A DNA stretch of 35,501 bases from a virus (taxonomy: Duplodnaviria > Heunggongvirae > Uroviricota > Caudoviricetes), in the IMG/VR virus record IMGVR_UViG_2534682003_000005, positions 1-35,501 of that record. The stretch is one strand, 5' to 3'. This document shows, in pieces, positions 1 through 19,684 of this stretch. A program made the translations under genes and the position numbers. How positions within the stretch are numbered: position 1 is the first letter of the stretch; each line of letters begins with the position of its first letter. Below the pieces are notes generated by a model. That model made no database searches. It saw only the letters and a program-made list of their open reading frames with translations, and was not told the origin of the DNA.

Positions 1-729
1 TTACTCACCAACAGCCCACCAACTGTAATTCATCGATACCGTGTCGCTGGTTGATGACGTTCTGTAAGCAGAATTAAAGCCGGTTAACGTTGGGCCTTCT
101 GCGGTCATCATGAATCCCCGCCCAGCGCCTAAAGGCGCACCGCCATCACCAGAATGAGTAAGCATGGCGCAGTCCGCTTTTTTGGGGAAAGGGATGCTGA
201 ATGTAATTCTCATTGTTTGCGTCGATAATGTCGGCGTAACCGCACCACGACCATATTGCAGGATTTTCCCGTTGGGTAATTTCATCCATCCATCACCACT
301 GGCAAAAGAGGCCATGTCCGGTATCTGATTTTCCCCTGTTCCCACATCCCGTTTTGCCGCTTCTCCCAAACCAAGGTTTTCGAGAGCCGTTCGCACAGTG
401 CCATCCGATTTGATATCGCCAAACGGATTCTTGCGGCTCAGGTATTCAACAGCAAACCCCGATTCCAGCAATTCAACAAAACCGGGCAGATCACCATTAT
501 CAAGCACATCCCGTTGCGTTTTATCACTTACAAACTGGGCCAGAGCTGCAGCAATAAAGCTGGCCTGCCGAATAACCTTATTGACTTGCGCACTGGATGC
601 TTTCCCTGCTGTAAATCCGGATATAAGCGCAGGCAACGTTTCCCATTCCTCCTGCGACATAACATTGGCATTTCGATCAGTTGCAAACGCTTTAAAGTCA
701 TTTTTCGCCATCAGAGTAATACTCCCCAT
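1..729 (-). CDS. Putative tail fiber / receptor-binding protein (short, 242 aa)
   Basis: Last gene of the baseplate cluster, Gly/Ser/Thr-rich C-terminus; stop codon at 1-3 so the ORF is complete at the window edge; family not recognised with certainty. Confidence 0.4.
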
Positions 730-1391
730 GCCCCTACATCAAAACCACTGATGAATTCGTTATCCATATCAAAACCAAAAAATTTAGAGCCTTCCGATGG
801 AGTTTCCACCGAAGGTGTTTCAATGCCCCCCGCCCATACCCCGGCGGCTTTTACTGTTAGATACCCCTGTTTAATTGCCGCAATTAACTCACGCGATACA
901 TCTGAAATATCAGTATCAGGAAAGACCCAGACCGATATCGTCATGTCCTGGTTATCGACTATCTGCATTCGCAGCCCGGATCCTGCTGTTGCAGCGTCAA
1001 GAATTGCTGGAAGCGAATCATTCCGTCCGTCCCAGTTATTAATCGCAATCTTCGCTTTAAGGATGACACGATAAGTTTCATCGCTGAGGTACATGTATCC
1101 GGAATCAGGATCGTATGGCCCCTGCCATACACCCTGATCATATCCAAGCCCGTCGGTATCCCAGCTGAAATAGACACCTGAGATAGGCTGGCTGACAACA
1201 CGGCTACGTCCGATCCACAATCCCAGAATGTCAAGTTGCACACCAACCGCAGAGTCAATATCAAATGCAGTAATCAGCCCTCTGGTGGCCGCCGCAACAT
1301 CAATAAGCGGCCGGGTCATCAGATCAACATGTGCAAGAAATTTAGGTTTGGTGGCGTGGTAGTTCGTGATTAGTTCGGTATATTTGCTCAT
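711..1391 (-). CDS. Baseplate/tail protein, gpI-like (226 aa)
   Basis: Directly downstream of and overlapping the baseplate J-like gene; position matches P2 gpI / Mu gp48. Confidence 0.5.
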
Positions 1392-2587
1392 GACTCCACC
1401 GTTATAACGATATTTTCCGGTGTACAGGACGCAGATTCGTTGTATCTGATATCAATGTTTGATGACGACAAAGCCCCCGGGGATTTCCCAATCGTCAGTT
1501 CCTGAATATCGTAATAGCGTGCATTCCCGCCACTCACCACACCAAGATTCGCCGGTGAGTAAATGCGACTTAAAAGGACCGAATCACCAATCATCAGACT
1601 ATTGATATAGTCGGAAATAGCCTGCTGGATCTGCTGCCCTATCTGTGAGGTATAACCCGTAAAAACTTTTAATTTAATCCGGGCATAAACAGGCACATCA
1701 CTAGAGCGCGAGAATTTGATTACATGGGGATTGCCGTATTTATCCGGAACCGTAACGGATGTTGTACCGTGAGTGGATGTCCCCTGGCCTTTATTCCCTC
1801 TGATAGCCTGAGCAATATCCGTCACATCACCGCCATCCACAATTACAGCAACAGAGTGTGGCGGTAACCCGTTACCGTCCTCCGAACCAGTATCGTTTTC
1901 ATAGAGTTTGTGGCGGGTTACACCGGTAACATTAGAAACAGCACCATCCAGTGCTTCAAATGGGGTTATTGATGGCAACGCAACACTTTGCGACTGGCGG
2001 ATACGTAACTCAGCGTCAGTTTCTGCCGGAGTGCCCACAGTGGCTGCAGCAGGATTGGTTACCGAAACCCAGCCACGGGTTGGCGTATTAATTTCAGTGA
2101 TAGTTCCAGCCAGCGCCGCCACTGCACCACTGACGGAACATGTTGCGGTCACCATCACTGTACCATCCACGCCTACCACCACTGAAGCAGGCAAACGCCA
2201 TATCACATTATTACTGTCTTTCACGCTGCCATTAATGATGGTTGTTCCGGCAGTTCCTGTAAGAAGCAAATCAACCGTAGAGTTCGTCGCGCCTTTACGT
2301 GAAATACCATTTATTTTCACGTTACTGGTCAGTGCAGCCCCATAGCCGGTTGCCGGTGAAAAACAGTTGTAGACAGTTATCGCCGTATTATTGGCATCAT
2401 GAATCGCCAGCGCCATCAGAGCCACCATCTGGCCGTCTTTGCTGTCCGGTTCGAGGTAGGCATCACTACCATAAATCTGCTGAAAATAGCTAATCAGGGT
2501 GCTGAGTATCGTCTGATAATCAGGCGCACTGATCCCCTCCGCGGTTACCTTTGCAGATAAACCGAGAGAATCAAGGTTCAGAGCCAT
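1388..2587 (-). CDS. Baseplate J-like protein (399 aa)
   Basis: Size and position after the gpW-like gene; typical baseplate J family composition; 4-nt overlap coupling. Confidence 0.65.
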   Translation of the reverse strand: MALNLDSLGLSAKVTAEGISAPDYQTILSTLISYFQQIYGSDAYLEPDSKDGQMVALMALAIHDANNTAITVYNCFSPATGYGAALTSNVKINGISRKGATNSTVDLLLTGTAGTTIINGSVKDSNNVIWRLPASVVVGVDGTVMVTATCSVSGAVAALAGTITEINTPTRGWVSVTNPAAATVGTPAETDAELRIRQSQSVALPSITPFEALDGAVSNVTGVTRHKLYENDTGSEDGNGLPPHSVAVIVDGGDVTDIAQAIRGNKGQGTSTHGTTSVTVPDKYGNPHVIKFSRSSDVPVYARIKLKVFTGYTSQIGQQIQQAISDYINSLMIGDSVLLSRIYSPANLGVVSGGNARYYDIQELTIGKSPGALSSSNIDIRYNESASCTPENIVITVES

Positions 2588-2940
2588 TACGCCTCCGATG
2601 TAACAGTCGTTATTCCATAAAGAGTGTCGATTTCAGCGGAAAACATGACACGTCGGGTCGTGGTATCCACCGTCGTATTGAAAGAGAGGATTGATTTAAC
2701 GCCCTGCGTTTCCAGAATGCGCTTACGGATCGCCAGGTTGTAGGTTTCCGGCTTCTGCCTGCCCAGCACGGACTGGATCCATGGAGTCCCTTCGGTGGTG
2801 TCGAGAAACCATTGCCCATACCACAATTCGAATCGCGTTTTTACCGCCTGCGCCACGGCCTCCGGTGAGTTAATCAGCCAGGTGTCATCACCGCTGCCAA
2901 AGGTGTAATCACCATCGGCGTCTTCACGTCTGTATCGCAT
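2587..2940 (-). CDS. Baseplate protein, gpW / Mu gp46-like (117 aa)
   Basis: Small protein between V-like and J-like genes, start-stop coupled. Confidence 0.55.
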   Translation of the reverse strand: MRYRREDADGDYTFGSGDDTWLINSPEAVAQAVKTRFELWYGQWFLDTTEGTPWIQSVLGRQKPETYNLAIRKRILETQGVKSILSFNTTVDTTTRRVMFSAEIDTLYGITTVTSEA

Positions 2941-3692
2941 CAGTTTACCCCATCGGTATTGCTTCCACCGCGCTGAACACCGCCATGAGTGTGCGTATCA
3001 TCGATTGGCTTGCCGTTAGCCTTAACGCTCCCCAAGAACTCAACAGCACCAGTGATTTTTGAAGCCACACCAGAAACAACAGACCCCACCATGCCCCCCA
3101 TCCAGGTTAACAGGCCATGAATGGTTACTTTCTCAGAAAAATCAGCCAGAGGGGCAACCACATCAAGGCCCCCCGGAGCGACAATTTTAATTTTCCTGGT
3201 ATCAGGATTAAGCTCAAAATAGGTGCTGCCGTCATCACTACGCAACTGTGTGGCACTGGTATTAATACCGCTAATCTTCCTTGCCTGCGACTGGGGACCG
3301 ACAATACAAAACGCATCCGATAAATCATGCATTCTGTCATCGACCGGCTCCTGTATCCCGCCACTCTGCCACCAGAAATCAATACAACGATCGGCAAAAA
3401 TCACCAGGCATTCATCGCCGGCTTCCACCGGGAAAGTTAACGTGCAGCCGCCGCCGCGCGGGAATACCACTGGTACATCCACCAGCAATGGGTAATTTTG
3501 GGTAATGCGGTTGCCGTCATTATCCTTTTCAACCGAACGGATCGCAGGCTGCACAACCGCTGTCACCGCATCAGGATCGAATGACTGGACGATGCCAGGC
3601 AAAGCAACACGTATCTGGTTCTTTGTTGTTTCCCGTTCAGATTTGAATGTTTCGGCAAGGTCGCCGCTGCGGGTCTGGTCAGATACTGCCAT
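2940..3692 (-). CDS. Baseplate assembly protein V / spike-like (250 aa)
   Basis: N-terminal region resembles Mu gp45 / P2 gpV family; Gly-rich C-terminus. Confidence 0.6.
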   Translation of the reverse strand: MAVSDQTRSGDLAETFKSERETTKNQIRVALPGIVQSFDPDAVTAVVQPAIRSVEKDNDGNRITQNYPLLVDVPVVFPRGGGCTLTFPVEAGDECLVIFADRCIDFWWQSGGIQEPVDDRMHDLSDAFCIVGPQSQARKISGINTSATQLRSDDGSTYFELNPDTRKIKIVAPGGLDVVAPLADFSEKVTIHGLLTWMGGMVGSVVSGVASKITGAVEFLGSVKANGKPIDDTHTHGGVQRGGSNTDGVN

Positions 3693-3709
3693 TTAGTAGG
3701 CTCCAGAAA

Positions 3710-3734
3710 GCAAAAAACCCGCCGAAGCGGGTTT
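3710..3734 (-). terminator. Intrinsic terminator downstream of the membrane-protein moron
   Basis: Minus-strand hairpin AACCCGC-TTCG-GCGGGTT followed by a T-tract (TTTTGCTTT). Confidence 0.6.
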
Positions 3735-3749
3735 GAAAGGATGTATGGA

Positions 3750-4322
3750 TTATTTAGGTTTCTTCCTACCATAAACAAACACTGTAGTTAATCCTACGAG
3801 ATCTAAAGTAGCAAGAGTACCTGCGAACCAAGTGTTACCGCGATTAGCAAAAAACGCAGCCATTATAAGCACTACCATTGCAATGCAAAATCCCATCCAT
3901 TGCCCACGTTTGTCGCGTGAAACCGCACCAAGTAATGCATCACTTTGCGTCTTATGCCTATGCTCTTGCTCTTTTTCGGTTAGCCTGAAAATTCTCTCAG
4001 CGCCGCCGGGTAATATTTGATTATATTGTAAGAGCATAGCAGGAGGTGGGAGTGGTCCCTGAAAAGACTCCTGCTGAAACATGGCAATAACCTTCGGGTT
4101 CTTAGAAACTCTCTCAAGAAGTTCAGGTGTTAACTTCGATTTTAGCTCAGGATCAAGGTTGGCAACTGCAGACAGCTTTTCCACTACTTCCTGAGACTCA
4201 TCATATTCCGAGGAATCAATATCTTCGTCGATACCATCCGAATCAGGAACGGCTTTTTGCGACGCTTTGTTTTCCTGATGCTTTTTGAGAACGGCCGCCT
4301 GCTTGCGGGGTTTTGAACTCAT
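3750..4322 (-). CDS. Moron: hypothetical protein with acidic N-terminus and two C-terminal transmembrane helices (190 aa)
   Basis: ORF with predicted TM segments (FCIAMVVLIMAAFF, LATLDLVGLTTVFVY); inserted between gpD-like and gpV-like tail genes; followed by its own terminator; looks AT-richer than flanking tail genes by eye; recalls a predicted-membrane-protein DUF family from memory, unverified. Confidence 0.6.
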   Translation of the reverse strand: MSSKPRKQAAVLKKHQENKASQKAVPDSDGIDEDIDSSEYDESQEVVEKLSAVANLDPELKSKLTPELLERVSKNPKVIAMFQQESFQGPLPPPAMLLQYNQILPGGAERIFRLTEKEQEHRHKTQSDALLGAVSRDKRGQWMGFCIAMVVLIMAAFFANRGNTWFAGTLATLDLVGLTTVFVYGRKKPK

Positions 4323-4482
4323 ACCTGATAACTCTGTTCATGTCACTTGCAATGACTTTAACATCACTTCTTATTGCCCGACAATCAGATCCAGAAGCAG
4401 CATATTGCCAGTAATCTGTAGTCGGCATAATGTCCATAACACTACCGGCAGCGGCTAAGTAACGATTAACGATTTTCCTCAT
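4243..4482 (-). CDS. Hypothetical small protein (79 aa from internal ATG), overlaps start of downstream moron gene
   Basis: ORF with strong Shine-Dalgarno (GGGAGGGG) 4 nt before ATG at 4482; 80-nt out-of-frame overlap with the 3750-4322 gene leaves it uncertain. Confidence 0.3.
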   Translation of the reverse strand: MRKIVNRYLAAAGSVMDIMPTTDYWQYAASGSDCRAIRSDVKVIASDMNRVIRYEFKTPQAGGRSQKASGKQSVAKSRS

Positions 4483-4647
4483 ATCCCCTCCCATAGTGAA
4501 CATCAGTGGAGCGCAGAGTTTACCTTTAAGGTAAAGTGTAGACAACTACTGTGTACAGATGGTTCAAAAAATGCGTTAACCAGTATTAATTTGTTAAAAT
4601 TAGCGCAATTGGCAACAGTTCATCCATAATATTATGGACGTCAAAAA

Positions 4648-4992
4648 TCATCGCCCAGCCACTTTTTTACACGGGAAAGATCCGATGATTTTCGGTGCAT
4701 CCATGCTGTTCTGCAGAAGCTGGACGTTCAGGAAACGCGTTTCGGTGCCAGGGCGACGAATGTATTCAAAGCCGTAGTTGTTACCGTCTTTGGCAGGCAT
4801 AAGCCCCATATCAATCTTAATGCCATCAGCACCAAGATTTGTAATTTTCTGAGATGTGACGCGTTCACCGTTAATCATGTCCATTTCCCCCAACCTTGCA
4901 GTGATGGTGTAAGGTCCACAATAAGCGGTGTAACCGCTTGCAGATGCCCCAAATGACATAAAGGCAACAATTAAAATGGCTAAGGCTTTCAC
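4648..4992 (-). CDS. Hypothetical secreted/periplasmic protein with signal peptide (114 aa)
   Basis: N-terminal signal peptide MKALAILIVAFMSFGASASG; GTG start 2 nt after gpD-like stop with GGGGG SD-like run upstream; two Cys. Confidence 0.55.
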   Translation of the reverse strand: MKALAILIVAFMSFGASASGYTAYCGPYTITARLGEMDMINGERVTSQKITNLGADGIKIDMGLMPAKDGNNYGFEYIRRPGTETRFLNVQLLQNSMDAPKIIGSFPCKKVAGR

Positions 4993-4994
4993 AT

Positions 4995-6056
4995 TTACCC
5001 CCGGTTAAGCGAGTCCTGAGTGCGGAGATCCGCCGCGCCACGCGCTTCGCACATCATATCCATGTACCACGCCTGGCCCCTTGTATCGCCAGTGTACATA
5101 ATCCCGCGCACAATATAAACGCCATCCGTTGCGATGCTGGCAGGTTGTGCTGTGGTGCCGCTTAGCGTGATATTTCCGTCCGTGTTCTGGTCGGTGATCT
5201 GACCACCAGCCATCGCAATATCGTTGTTCGACAACGCGGTACGATAGACGGAAGCCTGATCCAGCTGAATGAGCCCGTTAACCCGGATGTTCGGATTAAT
5301 AAGAGCGCGGACGTTTACGCCGTTGCCGATGGTCTGCTGCGGCATGCCGATAAGCCCGGTGGCGCTGCTGAGCACAATCGCGTCGTGAACATACTCGTTA
5401 TTCGCCACCATCTGGCGCTGACCGTCCACAAATTGCCATGTTGCGCCACATTGTCCGGCCACGTTATCCATAAGATGCCGTGTCATGCCGAACAGCACCC
5501 GCCCTCGAGGGAATACGGTAGCAGGCATTTCAGGCGTCAGTCCTTCGGTCGCGCCTTTGGCCTCAAAGTCTTTCATCAGCGCACGGTTCACATCTGCGAC
5601 CGTGTAACCGGCCGCCAGCGTCTGCGAGGTTATACTGGTGGCAAATGCCAGATCCGTATCTGCTGCCTGAATCAGGACATAGGAATCAATAGGGCTGTCT
5701 TTTCCTGTGACCGAGTAGCGAATTTCTCCGCTGAAAATCAGCCCGTAGTTGCGGCCATCACTCTGGCCCACATCTGCCGCGTCGACTTCGCGCACGGTCA
5801 CGACGTCGCTTGCCGCCACCTCCGGCGCGATACCGTCGTAACCGGCAATCAGCCGCACTTTCGAAAACTCCTGCCCGGTAATTCGGTTCACAGTATCTGC
5901 CGAGAGGTTATAAATTTTGATAGTCCCTACCCGGGACGCGCTGCTGATGTTGAACCAGTCGATCGTAAAGGTGACTTTGAAATCACTTAGCTCAATTCCC
6001 TGACCGTTCCCGTCCACAAGCTGCAGCTCGAAATGTCTCATCCAGTTCTGTGACAT
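4995..6056 (-). CDS. Tail protein, late-control-D (gpD)-like / baseplate hub (353 aa)
   Basis: N-terminal pattern typical of gpD family (LQLVDGNGQGIELSDFKVTFTIDW); position after tape measure and small tail proteins. Confidence 0.6.
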   Translation of the reverse strand: MSQNWMRHFELQLVDGNGQGIELSDFKVTFTIDWFNISSASRVGTIKIYNLSADTVNRITGQEFSKVRLIAGYDGIAPEVAASDVVTVREVDAADVGQSDGRNYGLIFSGEIRYSVTGKDSPIDSYVLIQAADTDLAFATSITSQTLAAGYTVADVNRALMKDFEAKGATEGLTPEMPATVFPRGRVLFGMTRHLMDNVAGQCGATWQFVDGQRQMVANNEYVHDAIVLSSATGLIGMPQQTIGNGVNVRALINPNIRVNGLIQLDQASVYRTALSNNDIAMAGGQITDQNTDGNITLSGTTAQPASIATDGVYIVRGIMYTGDTRGQAWYMDMMCEARGAADLRTQDSLNRG

Positions 6057-6058
6057 GC

Positions 6059-6361
6059 TTACTCCGTTGATACCAGTAAATGACTGCGACCGCCCAGATC
6101 AGTTTTCGTGGGATAATCCTGTGTGTTGTCATCGCAGACCACCACCAGCTTAAAACCAAGCCCCATACAGGCGTACTGCGCCAGCAGATCAGCGCCAGTG
6201 ACGAGAGGAATACCGGAGATTACCGGCTCTCCTCTGTCGTTCTGCAGGTCCATAATCCAGTAAGGATCGCGCCATATGATGCTAATCTGCCAAGTGACAC
6301 CACCCAGGACGATGCTGAACTGCTGGTTGTCCGCTGTCAGCGGAATTTCCTGAATTGTCAT
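6059..6361 (-). CDS. Tail protein (100 aa), gpX/gpU-position
   Basis: Start-stop coupled ORF between tape measure and gpD-like gene. Confidence 0.4.
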   Translation of the reverse strand: MTIQEIPLTADNQQFSIVLGGVTWQISIIWRDPYWIMDLQNDRGEPVISGIPLVTGADLLAQYACMGLGFKLVVVCDDNTQDYPTKTDLGGRSHLLVSTE

Positions 6362-6948
6362 TAGCCGCCTCCCAGTAATGACGCCACGTTACCCGTAATG
6401 CTTTTCAGCAGTGAAGTATCTGGAGGCTTTGTGGTTTTGTTGCCGCTGTTCTGTACCGCCGACGTGCTGGCCCCTTCCTTCATGTTGGTTTTATCCGCGA
6501 CGGTAATCTGCTGTGTCCGGGAGATAATGACCTCCCTCAGGGTGAGGACGGCGGACAGGACGTTTTCGGTTGTCTTGTCCGTCGTCACTTCCAGCGCCCG
6601 GATCAACATGTTGCTGTACAGCCGTTTACCGGTTACCACATCGAAGGGGATACGGCTTTCCTGCAGATCCAGTAGCTCCTGATACGTCTGCTGAGGACTC
6701 AGGCCGAGCAGGCTGGTAGCCGTCAGATTACTGGCAAAATCCAGCAATGCGCCGCCACCGGCGAAACCAACCTCCATCACCACTTCTGACGGTTTTTTAT
6801 AGGCATGATCAGCGACAGCGGCCCCGACCTCTACCGGATGCTCTGTTATTTCAAGCATATCTGTATGCTTCTCTGAAATAACAATACTGGGAACAATCAT
6901 TCCTATTTTTCTGCTCTGCTGATGAAAAAGTGTAGAGAGAATATCCAC
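6361..6948 (-). CDS. Tail protein (195 aa), immediately downstream of tape measure
   Basis: Start-stop coupled ORF; position only. Confidence 0.4.
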   Translation of the reverse strand: MDILSTLFHQQSRKIGMIVPSIVISEKHTDMLEITEHPVEVGAAVADHAYKKPSEVVMEVGFAGGGALLDFASNLTATSLLGLSPQQTYQELLDLQESRIPFDVVTGKRLYSNMLIRALEVTTDKTTENVLSAVLTLREVIISRTQQITVADKTNMKEGASTSAVQNSGNKTTKPPDTSLLKSITGNVASLLGGG

Positions 6949-8936
6949 TAACCCACCCTCACCTGATTACTTCGCATGACCTGAGCATTTGCAGACTGTT
7001 GCCGACGTGCAACCTCATTACCGACAGCGTGCGGATCTCCGCCACCGTAAATGTGGTAAGTATTTTGCTGGTTAACCTCTGTCATTTTGCCACTAATTCC
7101 CGCCACGGCAGCCTTATTAATCAGCTCTCGAGAATAGATATTTCTTCCATTTTCATGCTGGATAATGCTGCTCATCAATGCTGACATGGTTTGCGGATCG
7201 CTCATATTCAGGGCAGCCCGGGGATCCACTCCCAGTCGTTGCGATACAGCCCTGATATACGCAGTTGTGTTGTTATTATCAGACGCAGGTGCCCAGGTAG
7301 AGATAATTTTCTCCACACTGTTTATTCCCCGTCCGGCGTACAGCATTAACTGACGAGCAAGAGCCCGTAATCCATCAAAAGCAGTTTCAAATCTGGCAAA
7401 TCGCCCGCCCGGGCGTTCAAGAGAAGCCCCTGCCTGACCAGCAAAATTAAGGTTTCCCGGATTGTTATTCCGTTCTCCTCGTTTCGTAGCCTGTGCATAT
7501 TGTTCCGGCTCATCATCACCAAACCAGCCGCGTACCGTCCGGCCCACACTGCGGGGATCGAATCCCCAGTGCTCTTTAATCCAGTCGGCAGTACTGTTAG
7601 CGCTGTCTGTAACCATCGGCATCGCTGACGGATTTTCGCTGCCCTGATTAAGTATCTGTTTGCCGATGCTGACGGCATCAGCCCAGCGGCCATCTTTGAT
7701 AGCGTTGAGCAGGTCGGCGATCATGTTCAGCATTTTGCTGAATTCGCCCATCTGGTCGATGAAGTTGCTGAAATCCCACTTCAGGGACCATGATTTGGGG
7801 TCAATATTGAGCAGTTTCGCCAGCGCTTTCACCAGTTCATTAACAGACCCTTTCAGGTCACGAACCATCTTCAGCGCGGCATCGACCTCCGGCTTCCACT
7901 TGCCCCAGTCAATCAGGCTGTCGCCGCCTTCCTTCCAGGTCTGATAGTCCTCCCACAGAAGGGCAATCCCCGCCGCCAGCGCGGTAATGAGGCCAATCGG
8001 CGACATCCAGAACGTACTGTTCAGAATGCGCAGCGCAATCGTCAGCGCGCCAAACAGCGAGATGAGCTCCCGCGTTTGCTTATCCAGCGATTGCCACCAG
8101 GTGATAAGGCTGGATGTTCCCTCAATTAGCCTGAAGAACAGCCGCCCGATGATGTCTCCGAGCGCCAGAATGCCTTTTATGGCTTTCGTCAGGGTCTGCT
8201 CGATGCGCGGGAAGTTATCGAGGATGTGGCGGCGCAGTGTGTCCAGCGAACCCGCCAGACCACCAGCAAGATTAGAGCCGATTTTGTCACGGGCCATACC
8301 TGCCATCGCGCCGAACTCGCGCAGGGAGGTCATGAATTTGTTGGAGCTTCTGGCCGCCTCGTCAGCATTGAAGCCGATAGCTTTCGCCATTGCGCTGTAC
8401 TGCCCGGAGAAATCACCCACACCCCGGCGCATCGCCATGAGGGTATTTTCGTCAATGCCCAGCATCTGCGCATACTGGTTAGCCCGGTAATACGGCATGC
8501 TGCTGAGCTTCTGTCCGACACCCGTAAAAATAGCGGCCATGTCGCGCATGTTGCCGCTGGCGTCACGGGTCTGTACGCCCAGGCGATTCAGAAAGCCTTC
8601 TGCACCGGGATTGTTACGAATAAACCGGGAGAGGCTTTCCAGAGAAGATCGCGCAGCGTCCACGCTGCCGCCAATCTGCGAAACCGCATAGCCAATAGAC
8701 TGAATCCCCTGAACCGTCGCGCCGGTGCGCTGTGACGCCCAGTAGAGATTATCCAGACCGGAGGCGATCTTGGCCGTGAAGGCCACCACGGACAGCGCAG
8801 CTCCTTCAACAGCCAGCCCCATTTTGATGACATTTGTAGTTGTACCGGCGAGGACAGAACCGAATTTTTTCGCGCCTGCATCATCCACACTGAAGCCAAG
8901 CGAGACAAGGAAATCTTTAATAGTTTCAGCGTTCAT
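6948..8936 (-). CDS. Tail tape measure protein (about 662 aa from ATG at 8936)
   Basis: Large Ala/Gly-rich, helix-rich protein downstream of the chaperone genes; ATG at 8936 with GGAGAGAGG SD (the ORF track extends to a TTG at 8957). Confidence 0.8.
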   Translation of the reverse strand: MNAETIKDFLVSLGFSVDDAGAKKFGSVLAGTTTNVIKMGLAVEGAALSVVAFTAKIASGLDNLYWASQRTGATVQGIQSIGYAVSQIGGSVDAARSSLESLSRFIRNNPGAEGFLNRLGVQTRDASGNMRDMAAIFTGVGQKLSSMPYYRANQYAQMLGIDENTLMAMRRGVGDFSGQYSAMAKAIGFNADEAARSSNKFMTSLREFGAMAGMARDKIGSNLAGGLAGSLDTLRRHILDNFPRIEQTLTKAIKGILALGDIIGRLFFRLIEGTSSLITWWQSLDKQTRELISLFGALTIALRILNSTFWMSPIGLITALAAGIALLWEDYQTWKEGGDSLIDWGKWKPEVDAALKMVRDLKGSVNELVKALAKLLNIDPKSWSLKWDFSNFIDQMGEFSKMLNMIADLLNAIKDGRWADAVSIGKQILNQGSENPSAMPMVTDSANSTADWIKEHWGFDPRSVGRTVRGWFGDDEPEQYAQATKRGERNNNPGNLNFAGQAGASLERPGGRFARFETAFDGLRALARQLMLYAGRGINSVEKIISTWAPASDNNNTTAYIRAVSQRLGVDPRAALNMSDPQTMSALMSSIIQHENGRNIYSRELINKAAVAGISGKMTEVNQQNTYHIYGGGDPHAVGNEVARRQQSANAQVMRSNQVRVG

Positions 8937-9566
8937 TATCCTCTCTCCATTTCTCAATGCGCCGCTGGTTATCCGCTTTTACCGCCAGATGGTCATTCAA
9001 GAGAGCAATGTCATACAAATCGACAGAGCCATCTTTAAGTGCTGTATAAGGAATTAACCCGGCGTCAACCGGATTGAGAAGGTAGGACAGCCCGTCCGGC
9101 AGGCTGTTAAACGTCAGCCCTGTTGCAGGCTCTGCGTCGTGCTGGTAAGGGGTGTAGGCAAAAAATTTCCCAGCGAATTGGCGACCACCCGCGCCACCAG
9201 CTGCAGCATGGTTAGCAGGTCGATATCATCGAACATCAGCTGACCGCTGTTGAATACCGGCGTCCATCCGTCCATGTGCTTACGTGACACTACGGCCAGG
9301 CAAGGATGAATAATCGCGTTGGTATCTTCTTCAGTCAGGGAAGACAGTTCCTCAGCGATACGCGGGAGCATGGTTTCAAACACCGGTTTTAACTGCTCGA
9401 ATTTCACGGTGTCGATTTTGCCATCAGCAGGCAAACGGGAGCGAATGCTCCCGAAATCTGACATCATTCCTGCCAGCACCGGCAGAAGTTTGCGGATCAC
9501 TTTCAGCTGATCAAAAACGCTGAGTTTTGCCGCGCGATATTTCACGCCTTTGATTTCGAATTCCAT
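8926..9566 (-). CDS. Tail assembly chaperone frameshift fusion (E+E' / G-T-like), made by -1 frameshift at 9159-9165
   Basis: -1 frame is open for 78 codons from the slippery heptamer to a TGA overlapping the tape-measure ATG (ATGAACGCTGA); translated by hand. Confidence 0.55.
9114..9566 (-). CDS. Tail assembly chaperone (E/G-like, 150 aa)
   Basis: Position between tube and tape measure; contains TTTTTTG slippery site near its 3' end. Confidence 0.6.
   Translation of the reverse strand: MEFEIKGVKYRAAKLSVFDQLKVIRKLLPVLAGMMSDFGSIRSRLPADGKIDTVKFEQLKPVFETMLPRIAEELSSLTEEDTNAIIHPCLAVVSRKHMDGWTPVFNSGQLMFDDIDLLTMLQLVARVVANSLGNFLPTPLTSTTQSLQQG
9159..9165 (-). promoter_or_regulatory. Programmed -1 ribosomal frameshift slippery heptamer T_TTT_TTG
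   Basis: Heptamer in the 0 frame of the chaperone gene (codons AAT TTT TTG); same motif as P2 E/E'. Confidence 0.55.
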
Positions 9567-9569
9567 GTA

Positions 9570-10010
9570 TTAAAACTCCCCGAGAACCTGGTCAATCTTG
9601 CCGCAGTCAAACACCCACGGCATCGTATTACCGGTTTTAGCGTTGGCATTATCCGGTTGTTTCTGGAACGCAACACTACGTGCCGTGATGATGTCGCCGC
9701 TGACCTTGTTTCGGATCACAATAACGTTATTCCCCCATGTGGCCGAAGACTGGCTCTGTGCGTTATACGCCAGCGACAATTTTTTATTTGTCGGTGATGT
9801 CTTCAGAAGGTTAACGGTAATCGTCCCGCTTTTATCTGCATGGAGACTGTGCATCACTTCGCCATCAGCACCGATGGTCATGGTGTTTTTAGGACCGCCC
9901 ATCGCAACCACAATCCCCTCTTCAGAACTTGCAGAACCGTACCCGAGGTCAATCGAACCGGTCGGCCCGGTCAGCGTCGCAGTGACATCCATAAAAGAAT
10001 AGGTAGACAT
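9570..10010 (-). CDS. Tail tube protein (146 aa)
   Basis: Size and position between sheath and chaperone. Confidence 0.55.
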   Translation of the reverse strand: MSTYSFMDVTATLTGPTGSIDLGYGSASSEEGIVVAMGGPKNTMTIGADGEVMHSLHADKSGTITVNLLKTSPTNKKLSLAYNAQSQSSATWGNNVIVIRNKVSGDIITARSVAFQKQPDNANAKTGNTMPWVFDCGKIDQVLGEF

Positions 10011-10020
10011 TCACTTCCCC

Positions 10021-11166
10021 TTAGCGAACAACGTTAATCTGTACGTCAGCGTAATGAACCGCGCCTGCAAGTTTTATTGCAGCCTGAATCACCGGAGCCT
10101 TACGGGCTTCACGTTCTGATTGTGCCTGTTCATCCAGCGGCTGGGCGTATACGTAATAACCTTTGGGCAGCGTGTCACCTGATGACAACTGGCCAAGGTC
10201 GCCCCCGTTCCATACGCCCGGAGCAATCAGTCCATTCTGAACGGCCTGATCCAGTGATTTTTCAACATTTGATAACAGTCGGGTAATACCGGCTTCAGTC
10301 TGGGGAACTTTCGTGGTGCTGGTATAAAGCAGGTTATAGAGGTTGGTCTGCACATAATTCTGTAACCAGTCCAGGCCGTGGCGTTCATCAAAGAAATCGC
10401 CGTTAGCCATCACTCCCTGCTGGAGGATAGCTGTATCATTCTGGTAGTACACGAACACATTGCAGTTTTTTGCATCAAGTGCCGATGCCTGGCTGACTGT
10501 CAGTGTTTCATACCCGACACCCGGCTCCTGCTTAAACTTGAGCGTAATCGCGGTATTACTGCCATTGAAATTAACCGTGAATGCCCGGCCAAATGCAGAT
10601 AACGCAGCGTATTTATTACCCGATGAATACTGAATAAAACTGCGTGAATATCCGGCGGTTTTCAGTTTTGATGCCAAATCATCTCTGGATGCAGTCTGCA
10701 GGCATTTCTCATCGCTTGTCGTAATCGCCAGAATACGGCTTACAGAAGAGGATTCGATCGCCGCAGCCACTTTCAGCCAGTCTGCATCCGGAATATCTGC
10801 ATCGTCTGCAATCCCCAGCCCATACCATGAAGTATAATCAAGCATGGCATTCACAGCCTGCTCCAGCGTCTCAGGCGTGGCCTGTTCGCTGTCTCCATTC
10901 GTTTTCATCCAACGACCAACAAAAACCTCCTGAGGTTTCGGTGATTGAGAGAAAAACACCTGCGCAGCCTTATATTCTGGTGATTCCACGCCAAAATCTT
11001 TTCCAATATCTTCCGCGGCAGAATAACGGCGAATGCGCTCACTTACCGGAATGATTGTGGACGGGCCGAGAATGAGTAATGCACCAAAATTTCGCCCTGA
11101 TGCTGCACGCGGCGACATGATCACATCAACATTAACAACGTTTGATACAGGCAAGCCCTGTGCCAT
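10021..11166 (-). CDS. Tail sheath protein (381 aa)
   Basis: Size and position upstream of tube gene in a contractile-tail cluster. Confidence 0.55.
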
Positions 11167-11169
11167 AGC

Positions 11170-11736
11170 TTAATCTCCGAAAAAGATGACTGGTGCTTCC
11201 ACCAGCGATTTAATACCGTACTCGCGCACAACCTTCCGGCGCAGACGCACCGTCATATCGTAGCGGCGGACCCATTGCTGATTAATAAGTTCAGGGAAGG
11301 GAGTCAGACCTGTGTAATCGCCAAGAGACAGCCCCAGCGCATTCAGTGCTGCATTGTTCTGCGGCACAGATATACCGTCACGAAACCGGGACGCATACAC
11401 CATCCCCGCCGGTCCATAAAACGAAGCCATACACTCAATCGTTTCATGCCGCCAGAGCTGAGAGCCATTATCGGTCTGTCTGGTGAATGCCGGACTGTCA
11501 TCACCTGACCATCCGATAACCCCAAACGCACACCAGTTCGTTTCAACCGGTAGCAGTGGCGGCTGCTCTTTCTGCCAGCGCGGGCGAACCATCCCGGCAG
11601 ACAGGCCGGAAACGTTACGCATCCACTGGCTTAACAGCCTGTCGAGCGCTTCGTCATAATCCGGATCGCCACTGGTTGGTATTAACCATCCGCGCTCTGT
11701 ACTGGTGTTATTGCTCAACCGGAGTTCCCCCATCAA
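11170..11736 (-). CDS. Head-tail joining / tail completion protein (188 aa)
   Basis: Position between capsid and sheath genes. Confidence 0.35.
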   Translation of the reverse strand: MMGELRLSNNTSTERGWLIPTSGDPDYDEALDRLLSQWMRNVSGLSAGMVRPRWQKEQPPLLPVETNWCAFGVIGWSGDDSPAFTRQTDNGSQLWRHETIECMASFYGPAGMVYASRFRDGISVPQNNAALNALGLSLGDYTGLTPFPELINQQWVRRYDMTVRLRRKVVREYGIKSLVEAPVIFFGD

Positions 11737-12097
11737 ACGGCATCAACTCACAATGCGCCTGAACGAATCCGGCCCCATAAGCTGTATACGGGTCGACGAA
11801 GGTCACACGATAATCACGACCCTGATACGTCACGATATCGGCATCACGGCCAGTCTGTCCCTGCGTCAGTCGCTCAGTCGTCACAATCAGAATTGCACCG
11901 CTGATTACCTGCCCTGCCTGCATACGGCGGTTTTCCAGAGAGCGATCAACAGTTACGACTCCGGCAAACTGCTTTTTAACTTCACTGTCGCTGCCGATCC
12001 CGTCCTCATCAACCGTTTGCACTCGGCGTGTTACCCACAAATTGAAGTCGCAAAAATCGGGGTCAAAAAGCACATCTGTTACATCAAGAGTCGGCAT
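11708..12097 (-). CDS. Head-tail joining protein (129 aa)
   Basis: Position; compact operon. Confidence 0.35.
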   Translation of the reverse strand: MPTLDVTDVLFDPDFCDFNLWVTRRVQTVDEDGIGSDSEVKKQFAGVVTVDRSLENRRMQAGQVISGAILIVTTERLTQGQTGRDADIVTYQGRDYRVTFVDPYTAYGAGFVQAHCELMPFDGGTPVEQ

Positions 12098-12638
12098 CTT
12101 TATCCCTCACTACATGGGTAATCGCTCTGCGATATTGCCCGGTGTCAATTAATGGTTTCGCCAGTTCGGTTCCCGGGGATTCGCCAGCAGCACGCCGGGT
12201 AAGTTCCAGTGTTGCCCCCTTGCGCCCCCGACGAGCCCGGGCTTCAACAGTACTGTCAGCAAGCGGCGTAAAGCCGGTAATGGTCATGTAACGCCTGACG
12301 CCATTAGCGGCCAGCGTTCCGGCACGGTTGAGCGCTCTTTCCGCACCCGCCGCATTACCATCAAGCGCAGCCTGCGCCGCTGCTTTGAGCTGCGGCACTG
12401 TCTGTTCTTCTACCGATTTAACGCCGGGGACCAGGTGAGGTCGTGGCGGGATGTTTTGCGCCGGTGAGCCGTATTCGTTGAGGTAACCGATGCTCGCATT
12501 ACCAAACGGAACATCATCCCGCTCGCTGTCTTCCGAAGGGATGCCGACCAGCACATCTTTTTTGGTTAACGACCTGAGCGCATCCAGAATGGCCTGAGCG
12601 TTATCCACCCTCGTTGTTACACCGCTTTTGAAACTCAT
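12084..12638 (-). CDS. Head-tail joining / neck protein (184 aa)
   Basis: Position; compact operon. Confidence 0.35.
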
Positions 12639-13042
12639 AGCTGGCGACCGCCTGCACCGAACATCGTGATCAACTGATAAAATTCAGCGCCATATCGGGT
12701 GTTATTCCAGAAACCTGCATCAGGATTCAGCGTCGCGCTGGTGTCATAACTGACGCTTACCTTATCCACGGACTTTGAGGACTGAACACCATTGGTTGAA
12801 CCGCCCGGACCACCAGCCAGCATCGCCCAGCTGTCTGCCGCCCAGAGCGTCATGTAGTGCGCAACGAACAACCCGGCAAAGTACGGAAACAACTTTTTCC
12901 CGGTGACGTTTTCGCTCAGCAGTTCATCGGCCAGATTCAGACGAAACTGGATTTGCGCTTCGGGATATTTGGCAGGGTCAGCAAACTGCGGGAAGTCGCG
13001 GCGAAAATCACTTACCGCTGGCAGACTTTGATTCTTTGGCAT
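12635..13042 (-). CDS. Head completion / adaptor protein (135 aa)
   Basis: Position; compact operon. Confidence 0.35.
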
Positions 13043-13229
13043 TTTTTACCTCGTTACGCGCGTCTGTGGCTTTGCCAACGGATACTTCCGCGTGCGCACG
13101 AGTGAACCAGTGCGTGGCAACGTCTTCCTCCACTGCATGACGTCCTTTAACAAACTCGCGCCGCGAACCGTCGGGAAGCGTGAGCACAAACGGGGTATGT
13201 ACGTGTATTACTGCATTATTTTTTGCCAT
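13008..13229 (-). CDS. Small structural protein (73 aa)
   Basis: ORF directly downstream of major capsid gene. Confidence 0.3.
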
Positions 13230-13270
13230 CGGGTCATCCTTAATGGCCCCGCCAGGGGGCCATATGGCTG

Positions 13271-14212
13271 TTAAATGCCATCAACGTACGAAATGGTTTC
13301 TTTGTACACTGGCTCGACTGCACCCAGCTTGCCGTAGTAGGTCGCAATCTGGTACAAACCGCGATACTGCACCGGCACGCTCTGAAGCGGAACCAGCGGG
13401 TAGCGGACGTATTTTTTATCGTTGGTGTACGCAACCATGCGATCCTTATTCCCCACACCACGGCCTTTCAGCCATTTAACCGCGCGGATATTCAGCGGAA
13501 CACCGTTCTGGTGATAGCTGATGGTGTTGGTCTGAAGGTACGTCAACAGGGACTGGTTACCCGCAGATGAAACGATGATGCTGGACAACAGAGCAAACTG
13601 CTCAGGCGGGATCAGCAAATCACGCGGAACCACAGAGTAACCGGAAGCGGCCCACGCATCAGACAGCACCTGGTTAATGCTTGCGCGGATTTCGTCCGGT
13701 GTTGAGGTTGCCCACGTTTTGGCAGCGTTGTTGACAGGAACACCGTTCAGGGTAACAAGGCCTTTCAGGTTTAATGCGGAATCGCCAACATACACCTGTT
13801 CATCGTTATCCATCTGCCATTTCAGTTGCATCCCGTCATACTTCTGCGTATCGATCGGGCGTCCGACCTGCTGAGCAGCCTGCAATTCTATGACCGTCCA
13901 GCCAAGTTCCATCCCCCACAGGTTCAGCGGGTTACCGGATTTGCCGATATCCACGTTTACGCCAGCAATAGCGGTTGAGTCTTTGCCTACCCAGTTTTTG
14001 CCATTCGGATTTGCACCAGTACCCGCAGCGGCGAAGCTGGTATTCGTCCAGCTGGAAATGTCATCTGCGATAGAGACATCTTCACGCAACTGAATATCGC
14101 GGGTCCAGGTGTACCCCACCAGTGGCAGGTTCAGCGTCTGGTCGAGTCGCTCCAGCTCCCCGATGAGAAAGGCACCAGAGCTGTCAACGGTTGCCTGATC
14201 AAAAGTAATCAT
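13271..14212 (-). CDS. Major capsid protein (313 aa)
   Basis: Size and position after scaffold/decoration genes; Mu gpT-like module order. Confidence 0.65.
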   Translation of the reverse strand: MITFDQATVDSSGAFLIGELERLDQTLNLPLVGYTWTRDIQLREDVSIADDISSWTNTSFAAAGTGANPNGKNWVGKDSTAIAGVNVDIGKSGNPLNLWGMELGWTVIELQAAQQVGRPIDTQKYDGMQLKWQMDNDEQVYVGDSALNLKGLVTLNGVPVNNAAKTWATSTPDEIRASINQVLSDAWAASGYSVVPRDLLIPPEQFALLSSIIVSSAGNQSLLTYLQTNTISYHQNGVPLNIRAVKWLKGRGVGNKDRMVAYTNDKKYVRYPLVPLQSVPVQYRGLYQIATYYGKLGAVEPVYKETISYVDGI

Positions 14213-14223
14213 TCGTCTGTTCC

Positions 14224-14730
14224 TTAAATCTTCCAGGAAATTTCTGCATTGCCGTCAGCATCACCGGCACCTGTGAATTCAGCGTTGGTCAGCACCACGT
14301 TTTTGCCACTGACTGACGTGGACATGAATCCACCCAGCGGCACTTTGATGGATTCATCAGTGGAGACGACAACGTATACCGGGTCGCCTTTTTTGATGGT
14401 GCTGGCATCAAAATCAGAACCGAGGTTAACGGTCACGTAGCCACGCTTCATGGCGTCGCCCGGGAAGTTCTTGCCACTCCCCACCTGGCGAACCATGTCC
14501 GGCTGCGACGTGGTAGGATAAGGGCGCACGTAGATCCCCTTCACCTTGTCTGCGGTATCACCATCTGCCAGCGGCACGAAAAAACCGTCATCATCGTATT
14601 TACCAGCCAGCCCATAGGCAGCGAAGGCGTTATCGGATTTAAGGACCACCGGTTCGACGGTTAAGTCCTGCGGGCGAGAGACAGCCCCGGTAATGCCAAC
14701 AGGCATCCGGTACAGAAATACATTATTCAT
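14224..14730 (-). CDS. Capsid scaffold/decoration-type structural protein (168 aa)
   Basis: Position between protease/scaffold and capsid genes. Confidence 0.4.
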   Translation of the reverse strand: MNNVFLYRMPVGITGAVSRPQDLTVEPVVLKSDNAFAAYGLAGKYDDDGFFVPLADGDTADKVKGIYVRPYPTTSQPDMVRQVGSGKNFPGDAMKRGYVTVNLGSDFDASTIKKGDPVYVVVSTDESIKVPLGGFMSTSVSGKNVVLTNAEFTGAGDADGNAEISWKI

Positions 14731-14733
14731 TTT

Positions 14734-15954
14734 TTACCCTTTACGGTTTGCCCAGAATTCAGCGTTTTGTTTGTTCAGGGAAGCGATACTGGTCATGCCC
14801 ATGTTTAGGCGCTGTGCATCGCCGGTGGTGGCGCGGGTGTTTCGCCCTTTGGCAATTTCAGACACGGCATTAAACGCCATGTCGACCGATTGTTTCGGTA
14901 ATTTGCGGATATCCGCATCACCGACTATCTGGCGAACCAGCGTTTTGTCAGCAGAAGCCAGAACCTCACGTTTGAACGCGGTCGGTTTCATCTTACGGCT
15001 CAGATCGATACCCGGAACGATAACTTCGGCACGCCAGGCTGAGTCACCAGTAATCGTGGTTTCCTCTTCATCGTCCTCGCCGTCACCGGTCGGATTATCG
15101 TCAGGCTTATTGTCGTTATCGCCCGTCGCATTTCCTTCCAGCTTAGCCAGCAGGGCTTTCAGTAATGTTTTGAGGTCATCATCACTGTCGCCGGTTGGAC
15201 CTCCGCCCATCTCTGGTGCTTTGTCCGGTAGCGGTTGCTGCGGGGACAGGTTGATGTTGAGATTAACGCCCTGCGGCAAATCCCCCTCATCTCCTGTAAC
15301 CGATGCGGGAGCCGACTCCACCAGTTCGTTCATGGTGTCAGCGTCACCCGTTTTGATGGCCGTGCGCATGCGGGTCCACCAGCTTTTCTTTTGATTTGCC
15401 ATTGTGTCTCTGTCTCCAATTGCACAACGATTTCCGGCTCTGCCTTTAGGGACAAGAGCCACATGGTTTCCGGTAATATCGACCTGCCCGGCTTTACCTG
15501 GCTCGGTCTGCTCGTACTCCGCGTCATAGCCACACGACACTTCACGCAGGCCATCTTCGATAAGCTGAATAGCGCTTTCGTCTTTGACGATAAGGTCAGC
15601 CAGCATCAAATCAGACTGGTTACCAGTCCCGCGCCGCACATTCTGAAGATGCCCGACAGCAAGCTCTTTCCAGTTCTCGGGATTTACCAGCCGCACATTC
15701 CCGTTTTCATCTTCAGGATGCAGGATCGTGATGCTCATCCCTTCGAATGAGGCGAGCGTGGCCGGATGGAATACCTGCTCAGGAGAACGCGTTACGACTA
15801 TCTCACCGAGCTTGTCGGGTTTGAGGTTTGGCAGATCGGCAGCGCCGTAGAGCTGCTTACCCGTTCGACCTATCGGCACGTCTTTGCACAGCAGCGAGCC
15901 GTCAGCCAGCTGATAGCGGGTTTCCCCCAGCCGGGTATTGAAAAAATATTTCAT
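14734..15954 (-). CDS. Prohead protease/scaffold-like protein (406 aa)
   Basis: Position after F-like gene; acidic Asp/Glu-rich linker; Mu gpI-like placement. Confidence 0.45.
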   Translation of the reverse strand: MKYFFNTRLGETRYQLADGSLLCKDVPIGRTGKQLYGAADLPNLKPDKLGEIVVTRSPEQVFHPATLASFEGMSITILHPEDENGNVRLVNPENWKELAVGHLQNVRRGTGNQSDLMLADLIVKDESAIQLIEDGLREVSCGYDAEYEQTEPGKAGQVDITGNHVALVPKGRAGNRCAIGDRDTMANQKKSWWTRMRTAIKTGDADTMNELVESAPASVTGDEGDLPQGVNLNINLSPQQPLPDKAPEMGGGPTGDSDDDLKTLLKALLAKLEGNATGDNDNKPDDNPTGDGEDDEEETTITGDSAWRAEVIVPGIDLSRKMKPTAFKREVLASADKTLVRQIVGDADIRKLPKQSVDMAFNAVSEIAKGRNTRATTGDAQRLNMGMTSIASLNKQNAEFWANRKG

Positions 15955-15968
15955 GGTTTACCTGCGAT

Positions 15969-19682: not shown

Positions 19683-19684
19683 AC

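Follow-up and report, generated by a model that had tools for sequence, protein, structure and literature searches.

The late operon of an Escherichia coli prophage raises the question of why a small membrane protein is encoded among its baseplate genes and what that protein does. The prophage is recorded in IMG/VR as IMGVR_UViG_2534682003_000005, a stretch of 35,501 nucleotides that is referred to here as the window and was analyzed at its full length. A preliminary description of the locus, made from the DNA letters alone, had taken the region around the membrane protein gene for an AT-rich accessory cassette with its own promoter and terminator, inserted between the genes for the baseplate hub and the baseplate spike. 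The tail operon has a standing slot for cargo, at present filled by positions 3737 to 4647. The cargo is a self-contained two-gene module, predicted to encode a 79-amino-acid (79-aa) cytoplasmic protein and a 190-aa inner-membrane protein of the DUF2335 family, which may serve the prophage in excluding other phages.

A Cargo Slot in the Tail Operon

Thirteen relatives, phages as well as prophages, were used for comparison at this site; they come from E. coli, Salmonella (SEN34), Yersinia (YP3), Klebsiella (Mulock), and Photorhabdus. On one side of the slot, every one of them retains the genes for the baseplate plug, the hub, and a homologue of a 114-aa secreted protein, and on the other side those for the spike and the sheath initiator. 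The interval from the 114-aa gene to the spike gene holds 11 distinct cargo sets in the 13 sampled genomes and is empty in none. DNA alignments place the left breakpoint at the stop codon of the 114-aa gene, where homology among the relatives stops, and the right breakpoint at a terminator hairpin, where it picks up again. The insert had been called AT rich, which is borne out by a content of 42.5% guanine plus cytosine (GC) in 3737-4647, versus 52.1% in the remaining late operon. Only 3% of all 911-bp windows are as GC poor as the cassette; the others all lie in the immunity region at 28 to 31 kb, and the late region holds no second one. Of 5,426 complete E. coli genomes, 336 contain some part of the slot frame and 16 contain the DUF2335 cargo, as one copy each and with at least 99.6% identity. 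Lysogens with the cassette are, for example, BEN2908, M-17, FDAARGOS_144, and MEI1A-0323. The sharp homology breakpoints, the variety of cargo among close relatives, the rarity in E. coli, and the GC contrast together identify the stretch as cargo in a slot.

The conserved frame, the exchanged cargo, and the low frequency among E. coli genomes support the earlier view of an accessory cassette outside the tail machinery. The pair is neither universal nor syntenic in related tails, the point on which that view had set its own refutation beforehand, and, with regard to a structural or assembly role in the tail, most relatives whose hub and spike genes are near-identical lack the pair. The position of the insert was only half correct: it adjoins the spike gene, but on the hub side the 114-aa gene intervenes. 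The adjacency of hub and spike genes that was to be looked for in relatives without the insert was never seen, since other cargo takes its place. The statement that tail operons normally carry no membrane protein at this point does not hold for this lineage, in which the slot often accommodates small membrane proteins.

The DUF2335 pair fills the slot in this window, in an 81%-identical copy (L066), and in a 47%-identical copy from Photorhabdus (L075). The remaining cargo sets consist of a 190-aa protein with a YafO-family toxin; a DUF4282 protein; a 184-aa protein, weakly matching a PycTM/2TM effector model, with a 56-aa protein; an unannotated 176-aa membrane protein with a 59-aa open reading frame (ORF); single proteins of 121, 170, 266, 138, and 148 aa; and a pair of 256-aa and 131-aa proteins. 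The slot of E. coli MS20659 (L012, 1655-2361) is annotated as empty yet contains the 176-aa multi-helix membrane ORF in intact form together with the 59-aa ORF. The 184-aa cargo of E. coli EL361 (L004, 2330-2884) shows a weak Pycsar PycTM match (2.6e-4) and an even weaker match to a "2TM effector" (7.2e-3). Orphan membrane-effector-like genes may be common cargo in this slot. In E. coli GZ2408P, a 63-bp remnant (L117, 2501-2563) that derives from the 3' end of a variant of the 114-aa gene and matches window positions 4664-4726 lies in the intergenic region leading from the resident 111-aa gene to the YafO-type cargo; it looks like the scar of cargo swaps with a crossover inside the 3' end of the 114-aa gene.

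The 114-aa protein is itself part of the frame. Its family directly follows the hub gene, to which the gene is tightly coupled in the window, in every relative examined. The protein carries a Sec-type signal peptide without a lipobox and is 63 to 70% identical in seven relatives, with C25 and C108 invariant. One relative's record labels the homologue as a "STY1065/STY2022 family phage-derived protein", and SEN34_20 of phage SEN34 belongs to the same family, with an annotation shortened at the N-terminus. A secreted periplasmic protein is a fixed member of this baseplate gene block. The boundaries of the slot, in the order hub, secreted protein, cargo, terminator, and spike, appear to be new for this common enterobacterial prophage group.

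The DUF2335 Protein

The 190-aa protein covers the full 50-position model of DUF2335, at 66.6 bits, above the curated gathering cutoff of 25 (Table 1), and also matches phrog_3996, which the PHROGs database labels as "moron... membrane protein". The two C-terminal transmembrane helices named in the preliminary description are found as hydrophobic helices at residues ∼142 to 160 and ∼165 to 184. Basic residues precede the first helix and follow the second, so that both ends of the protein are predicted to be cytoplasmic, with the helices forming a C-terminal hairpin. The N-terminus had been described as highly acidic; this is true of residues 25 to 60, with 13 D/E versus 1 K/R, whereas residues 1 to 24 are basic, with 7 K/R. 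In alignments, the conserved cytoplasmic core reads GPLPPP..L..Y..ILPG.AERIF..EKEQ.HRH, and the N-terminal extension is variable. The core extends over residues ∼88 to 140 and includes the invariant P92, P94, Y100, R110, and G140. L066 retains both the ATG at 4322 and the frame in which the extension is read. An alternative start, the GTG at residue 47, was rejected, as it is not conserved there; the charged, variable extension is therefore predicted to be translated.

The AlphaFold model of the protein is all-helical, with a mean predicted local distance difference test (pLDDT) score of 75. Short N-terminal helices are followed by a helix bearing the PPP..Y motif and by a long one that starts at the EKEQ.HRH motif and extends into the first membrane span, from which the hairpin turns back. 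The profile and structure searches that had been proposed for this protein were partly informative: DUF2335 was found, but searches of PDB folds, PDB sequence profiles, and viral folds returned only family members or noise.

A profile search (E value up to 0.001) places 16,678 clusters, formed at 50% identity, in the DUF2335 family, which is not confined to recognizable prophages. The best 150 clusters have lengths of 99 to 215 aa and show no additional domains. The alpha/beta hydrolase family is DUF2235, and a description as phospholipase or Tle1-like fits that family and not the two-helix membrane family PF10097. An assignment of "DUF2335" to a type VI phospholipase/Tle1-like domain (bioRxiv 10.1101/2023.07.16.549128; PMC6267618; PMC13600407) was rejected as a confusion of names; the phospholipase label is probably a propagated naming error for DUF2235.

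A Small Partner Gene

The possible 79-aa ORF with a strong ribosome-binding sequence that had been seen upstream of the DUF2335 gene is present, with GGGAGGGG at 4485-4492, and proves to be a conserved partner of DUF2335, which makes the cargo a two-gene one. It overlaps the DUF2335 start by 80 nt, and the two genes are probably translationally coupled. The ORF is not annotated by the Prokaryotic Genome Annotation Pipeline (PGAP), a protein database search with it gave no matches, and a Pfam scan of seven partner homologues at E values of up to 10 yielded only noise and no family. Comparison of gene neighborhoods was more productive. ORFs of 64 aa precede the DUF2335 genes in prophages of Citrobacter koseri and Proteus mirabilis; they are 36 to 41% identical to the 79-aa ORF and share its invariant N-terminal Y, GS, D, P, and Y. 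The conserved N-terminal motif of the partner is Y..(A)GS..D(I/L).P..(D/N)Y, in which Y8, G13, S14, D17, P20, and Y24 are invariant. Partner ORFs also lie upstream of DUF2335 in Photorhabdus, Yersinia, Dickeya, and Pantoea, with an overlap that varies across loci from none to 80 nt.

The extent of this association was determined with a hidden Markov model (HMM) built from three copies of the partner and applied to 48 IMG/VR loci and 42 genome loci, the latter collected with a narrower alignment and biased toward Enterobacterales. The partner was recognized directly upstream of DUF2335 in 35 of the IMG/VR loci and in 11 of the genome loci; it was fused to DUF2335 in 2 and 29, respectively, the latter from Xenorhabdus and related bacteria. 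The loci without a match contain the most divergent homologues, misses that are to be expected of a three-sequence model, and one of them (L049) shows a similar partner motif by eye. Nearly all sampled species of Xenorhabdus encode an in-frame fusion in which ∼25 N-terminal residues of the partner precede the DUF2335 core. These fusions are direct evidence that the products of the two genes work together.

The fused gene of Xenorhabdus (L080-L108) usually lies ∼0.3 to 0.5 kb from a divergent gene for a protein of ∼237 aa that resembles the cI-type repressor of L050. At L050 itself, a cro-like gene stands between the repressor gene and the fused gene, and a NADAR-domain gene follows. Two Xenorhabdus species possess an additional, unfused pair elsewhere.

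Comparison of the window with L066 shows both frames open throughout, including the 80-nt overlap and a 3-nt indel that keeps the frame. Identity amounts to 88.7% in the partner gene and 81% in the DUF2335 coding region. The recognition of DUF2335 in company with an unannotated partner, and as fusions with it, appears to be new.

Upstream Region and Candidate Promoter

The best-conserved part of the cassette is noncoding: the proximal 90 nt of the intergenic region (4483-4572) show 93.3% identity between the window and L066. About 47 nt of the distal part are deleted in L066, which makes much of 4580-4626 dispensable. A promoter had been expected within 4546-4647; most of that interval is dispensable in this sense, and the candidate that emerged lies next to it and is noncanonical. 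It consists of TCTACACTTTA. When both strands of the 35.5 kb are scanned for KCTAYRCTTAA, the extended -10 consensus of sigma-S (PMC5650638, quoting Weber 2005), with at most one mismatch allowed, this is the sole match, against 2.3 expected by chance. The variation in the -10 hexamer is limited to positions 3 and 5: the window has TACACT, L066 has TATAAT, and near-identical copies in IMG/VR have TATACT. A -35-like hexamer occurs no closer than TTGAAC (4562-4567), at a noncanonical distance of 21 nt. A promoter at this element is likely, judged from these features, and its dependence on sigma-S is a hypothesis only. A sigma-S-like promoter element at such a site appears to be new.

Directly after the -10 element lies the perfect palindrome TTTACCTT-A-AAGGTAAA, which occurs once in the window, is identical in L066, and folds into a 7-bp hairpin. 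It may serve as an operator-like site or, in the RNA, as a 5'-terminal hairpin. A second perfect palindrome of 14 bp, CCATAATATTATGG, is located at 4623-4636 on the minus strand, in the distal part of the intergenic region, close behind the 114-aa gene. In L066, it is broken, with about half of it left beside the 47-nt deletion, and it is probably not essential to the cassette.

Other DUF2335 contexts contain sigma-70-like promoter sites 60 to 75 nt upstream of the partner start codon, for example, TTGATC-17-TATACT, TTGCTA-18-TATACT, TTGACC-18-TAGACT, and TTGATC-16-TACACT. Of 17 contexts inspected, most (about 13, counted by eye) have a terminator within 15 to 60 nt after the DUF2335 stop codon. 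The two genes thus behave, together with a promoter and a terminator, as one portable unit.

Terminator and Proposed Read-Through

The hairpin attributed to the cassette as its terminator is present but is not specific to the insert. With its 8-bp stem (3734-3715), followed by TTTTTT, it lies 15 nt past the DUF2335 stop codon. Among the terminator-like sites on the minus strand of positions 1 to 20000, an interval that takes in the greater part of the late operon, it is the strongest, and it folds better than sequence that has been shuffled, with a z-score of -2.2. The hairpin, the T-run, and the spike leader GCTTTCTGGAGCC...ATG are kept with every cargo in the relatives from E. coli and Salmonella; at the corresponding site of Yersinia phage YP3, the hairpin is a different one. 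A hairpin that stays whatever the cargo belongs to the frame of the slot and not to the insert.

The same element was encountered outside the slot. In a siphovirus-type tail operon (L043/L044/L046, ∼4405-4440), a gene for a DUF2335 protein 52% identical to that of the window is followed by a match of ∼32 nt to the window terminator and its tail with one T fewer, AAACCCGCTTCGGCGGGTTTTTGCTTTCTGG. Slot relatives with other cargo show the same stem and the GCTTTCTGG tail around a different loop, and an exact-match scan of IMG/VR found the 5-T variant of the terminator in only five contigs. The shared terminator (...GCGGGTTTTT(T)GCTTTCTGG) may act as a recombination joint for the exchange of cargo between unrelated tail operons.

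A terminator in front of the spike gene would have to be passed during late transcription. In the model established for lambda and HK97, polymerase modified by Q ignores intrinsic terminators (Juhala 2000, as summarized in PMC3594210). The prophage encodes a Q-family antiterminator, so that late transcription should, from what is known of that family, pass the terminator at 3705-3734. Only transcripts begun at cargo promoters in the lysogen would then be halted by the hairpin.

Proposed Function and Alternative Explanations

The contexts in which the pair is found offer the best clue to its function. It lies directly downstream of cI-type repressor genes (L007, L028, and L041), in Proteus and other prophages on the same strand; at a prophage end beside gtrABC-type O-antigen conversion genes in Citrobacter koseri (L005); amid accessory gene arrays that separate the tail chaperone gene from the tape-measure gene (L030, L031, L042, and L043); and in the slot between hub and spike described above. 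Its neighbors are enriched in the KilA-N, HTH_3/Peptidase_S24, Rha, ORF6N, and Arc families, and ParE toxins are among them elsewhere.

From these data, a model for both phases of the phage life cycle can be proposed. In the lysogen, the pair would be transcribed from its own promoter with the sigma-S-type -10 element, which suggests expression in stationary phase or under stress, and the transcript would end at the slot terminator. That terminator would be passed in lytic growth by Q-modified RNA polymerase, which would express the spike and the remaining baseplate genes. The pair would act as an inner-membrane anti-phage module, either by blocking genome entry or by abortive infection. Here, the N-terminal motif of the partner would bind or gate the cytoplasmic core of DUF2335, and the variable acidic N-terminal region of DUF2335 would set the specificity. 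A slot occupant that is also a prophage-expressed inner-membrane anti-phage module is the best overall explanation of the locus, and its prospects of being correct are rated slightly better than even. The anti-phage function taken by itself, which is deduced from the genomic contexts, has a roughly even chance.

Several results weigh against this model. No model of PADLOC-DB 2.0 matched either cassette protein or the 114-aa protein at E values of up to 1, a literature search for DUF2335/PF10097 returned no assigned function, and neither a solved structure nor an informative fold match was found for the 190-aa protein in the searches described above. The AlphaFold model of a natural fusion (P0028) has low confidence in the partner-derived segment and gives no confident docking of the partner motif. 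A sigma-70 consensus scan of 4483-4647 found no site, and the candidate promoter has no acceptable -35 element; the missing -35 fits the sigma-S type, as promoters of this type characteristically lack a -35 consensus (PMC5650638). The fused gene of Xenorhabdus is located just after cro on the same strand, which would suggest early lytic rather than lysogenic expression. Several other cargoes of the slot begin within a few bases of the 114-aa gene, leaving no room for a promoter of their own, so that the slot does not uniformly contain independent units.

The palindrome at the candidate promoter and the layout of the genes, a small upstream gene overlapping a larger downstream one as in type II systems, would also suit an addiction module of the toxin-antitoxin kind, in which DUF2335 is the toxin and the small protein the antitoxin, and which stabilizes the prophage with defense as an optional effect. 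The YafO toxin pair in the same slot of relatives and the ParE toxins among the neighbors of the pair elsewhere point in the same direction. Scans of Pfam, NCBIfam, and PADLOC, however, gave no family for either protein beyond DUF2335 and no known toxin or antitoxin; the Xenorhabdus fusions keep only the N-terminal 25 residues of the partner; and there is no evident DNA-binding fold, which leaves autoregulation through the palindrome unsupported. An addiction module is therefore considered unlikely.

Likewise improbable is a factor of lysogenic conversion, i.e., a membrane protein of stationary phase or stress that benefits the host in ways unrelated to phages. The -10 element of the sigma-S type, the O-antigen conversion genes adjoining the Citrobacter pair, and the very large size of the family, with 16,678 clusters reaching beyond recognizable prophages, are consistent with such a factor. 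The contexts argue against it, most of those examined being immunity regions of phages or tail operons that hold further phage-interaction genes, as does the sequence, in which no hint of an enzyme or a transporter was seen; the model of the protein gives none either.

The terminator scan found no terminator between the 114-aa gene and the cassette, which means that late transcripts must include the cassette and raises the question of a lytic function, either in holin-like lysis timing or as a helper that conditions the membrane. With its two-helix hairpin and cytoplasmic ends, the DUF2335 protein is reminiscent of class II holins, the pair is often found beside membrane-penetrating tail parts, and the position of the Xenorhabdus fused form after cro would agree with expression in the lytic cycle. 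Against these similarities stand the presence of the pair in only ∼5% of the prophages with the same tail module, the complete lysis cassette elsewhere in the prophage, the promoter-like and terminator signals of its own in nearly all contexts, and a fold search against a viral library in which holins appeared only at E values above 5. A lytic factor is thus assigned a low probability, below that of an addiction module or a conversion factor. Finally, the idea of nonfunctional ORFs in a stretch of filler DNA that decays between the baseplate genes, to which the missing PGAP annotation of the 79-aa ORF and its empty database search might lead, is refuted by the intact frames of L066 with their in-frame indel, by a partner motif kept down to 36% identity across genera and in fusions, and by the strong DUF2335 match, and it retains hardly any credibility.

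A broader version of the anti-phage model regards the pair as a new, widespread two-component family for exclusion or abortive infection that is expressed from prophages under the control of sigma-S and whose placement next to tape-measure or spike genes is linked to the tail type to be excluded, with the terminator as a crossover point for its exchange. As a whole, this version is doubtful.

Accessory genes in prophage hotspots are a rich source of new anti-phage and host-modifying systems. Nearly all cargo families of the present slot have no assigned function, which makes the slot a ready list of candidates. The recognition of DUF2335 as part of a two-gene unit changes how the family should be cloned and tested, namely, with both genes together. 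If the pair is an exclusion or abortive-infection system, it is a new and abundant one; if not, it is an ordinary moron, an accessory unit of the kind discussed below.

The Prophage and Its Gene Neighborhood

The window is 100% identical to the prophage of E. coli MEI1A-0323 (NZ_CM149601.1), which is integrated beside tRNA-Arg, intS, and yfdC. In the PGAP annotation of that genome, the regulation genes are lambda-like and comprise N, a cI-like repressor of the LexA family, a Cro-like protein, cII, O, and P, together with ren, nin genes, Q, a lambda-family holin, and sieB. The virion module is a contractile tail of the Salmonella phage SEN34 type (genus Brunovirus). All late genes are on the minus strand and form one long unit downstream of the Q gene (Table 1); PGAP names the spike gene product a "membrane-puncturing spike protein". 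The holin, endolysin, and Rz/Rz1 genes lie ∼17 kb from the cassette. Two tRNA genes, Thr-TGT and Asn-GTT (22668-22823, minus strand), are located between the Q and holin genes at the start of the late transcript. The immunity region at about 28000-31300, the sole other low-GC stretch of the window with 39 to 43% GC, contains the repressor gene, N, and an exclusion gene of the sieB family, so that the prophage already carries one recognized exclusion function.

Table 1. Coordinates of the cassette, its signals, and the surrounding late genes in the window
Feature	Position	Strand	Basis or remark
Q-family antiterminator	22915-23403	-	PGAP annotation of 100%-identical NZ_CM149601.1
Tape measure	6948-8957	-	
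Dit-like protein	6361-6948	-	
Baseplate plug	6059-6361	-	
Baseplate hub, 353 aa, left frame of slot	4995-6056	-	phrog_196 "baseplate hub", 2.3e-88; Pfam E217_GP41, weak
114-aa secreted protein	4648-4992	-	phrog_3443, 2.3e-46
Two-gene cassette stretch	about 3700-4647	-	
Cargo-specific intergenic region	4483-4647	-	37% GC
Candidate -10 element TCTACACTTTA	4532-4542	-	sigma-S extended -10 consensus, 10/11 positions
Perfect palindrome TTTACCTT-A-AAGGTAAA	4519-4535	-	directly after -10 element
Partner gene, 79 aa	4243-4482	-	phrog_26284, 2e-12
DUF2335 inner-membrane protein, 190 aa	3750-4322	-	Pfam PF10097, 66.6 bits
Intrinsic terminator AAACCCGC-TTCG-GCGGGTTT plus T-run	3705-3734	-	directly upstream of spike ribosome-binding site
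Baseplate spike, 250 aa, right frame of slot	2940-3692	-	Pfam spike N-terminal domain, 2.6e-44; GpV Apex motif
Sheath initiator	2587-2940	-	
Baseplate J	1388-2587	-	

Comparison with Known Systems

A moron, in the summary given in PMC3594210 of the work of Juhala (2000), is an autonomous accessory unit in a phage genome. The cassette shows extra DNA at a variably filled site, a deviating base composition, and a terminator, the last common to the slot; in kind, it is what Juhala and Hendrix called a moron, situated in a diversity hotspot of the P2 type. The closest precedent is gene 15 of HK97, a moron in the tail operon that encodes the inner-membrane exclusion protein gp15 (Juhala et al. 2000; Cumby et al. 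2012; reviewed in PMC3594210). Both are extra DNA of deviant composition in the tail operon of a lambdoid phage, with a terminator, a promoter (a candidate one in the cassette), and a small inner-membrane protein; read-through by Q-modified polymerase is the accepted explanation for HK97 and the probable one for the cassette. The position of gene 15 between the tail chaperone and tape-measure genes is also the site of other DUF2335 pairs (L030, L031, L042, and L043). Contrary to the HK97 moron, which has one gene, the cassette contains two, and its slot lies between the hub and spike of a contractile tail. There is no sequence relation to gp15/YebO, as Pfam gives only DUF2335 for the 190-aa protein and nothing for the 79-aa protein. 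Exclusion activity has been demonstrated for HK97 gp15, whereas the cassette is known from its sequence.

The hotspots of P2-type phages, the Z/fun and old/tin loci (Rousset et al. 2022; bioRxiv 10.1101/2024.10.15.618418), resemble the slot in that unrelated accessory or defense genes are swapped between close relatives at a fixed site flanked by structural genes, and one of these hotspots adjoins baseplate and tail genes. The slot differs in its lineage, which combines lambda-type regulation with a SEN34/Brunovirus-like tail, and in its flanking genes, and its cargoes give only weak matches to known defense models.

Two other systems were considered and set aside. The exclusion genes olg1 and olg2 of Pseudomonas phage Fc02 (PMC9936078) have similar sizes but a nested arrangement, instead of a tail-to-head one, and no link to DUF2335, and the Tai system of tail-assembly interference (PMC11364771) has a different genomic position and no membrane protein.

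Type II toxin-antitoxin systems share with the pair the order of a small gene before a larger one, the overlap, the palindrome at the promoter, and natural fusions, although neither cassette protein belongs to a known toxin or antitoxin family. Fused toxin-antitoxin proteins with a role in defense, such as CapRel, exist.

RexAB of lambda and SieB of P22 and lambda show no sequence similarity to the pair, RexB spans the membrane with four helices, and RexA greatly exceeds in size the partner of 64 to 79 aa; the prophage, moreover, has its own sieB besides the cassette. In architecture, the pair is like these systems, being a two-protein module with a membrane component that lies beside the repressor gene in Proteus and other prophages. 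This suggests a RexAB-like logic for the pair, in which the cytoplasmic partner would work through a membrane effector.

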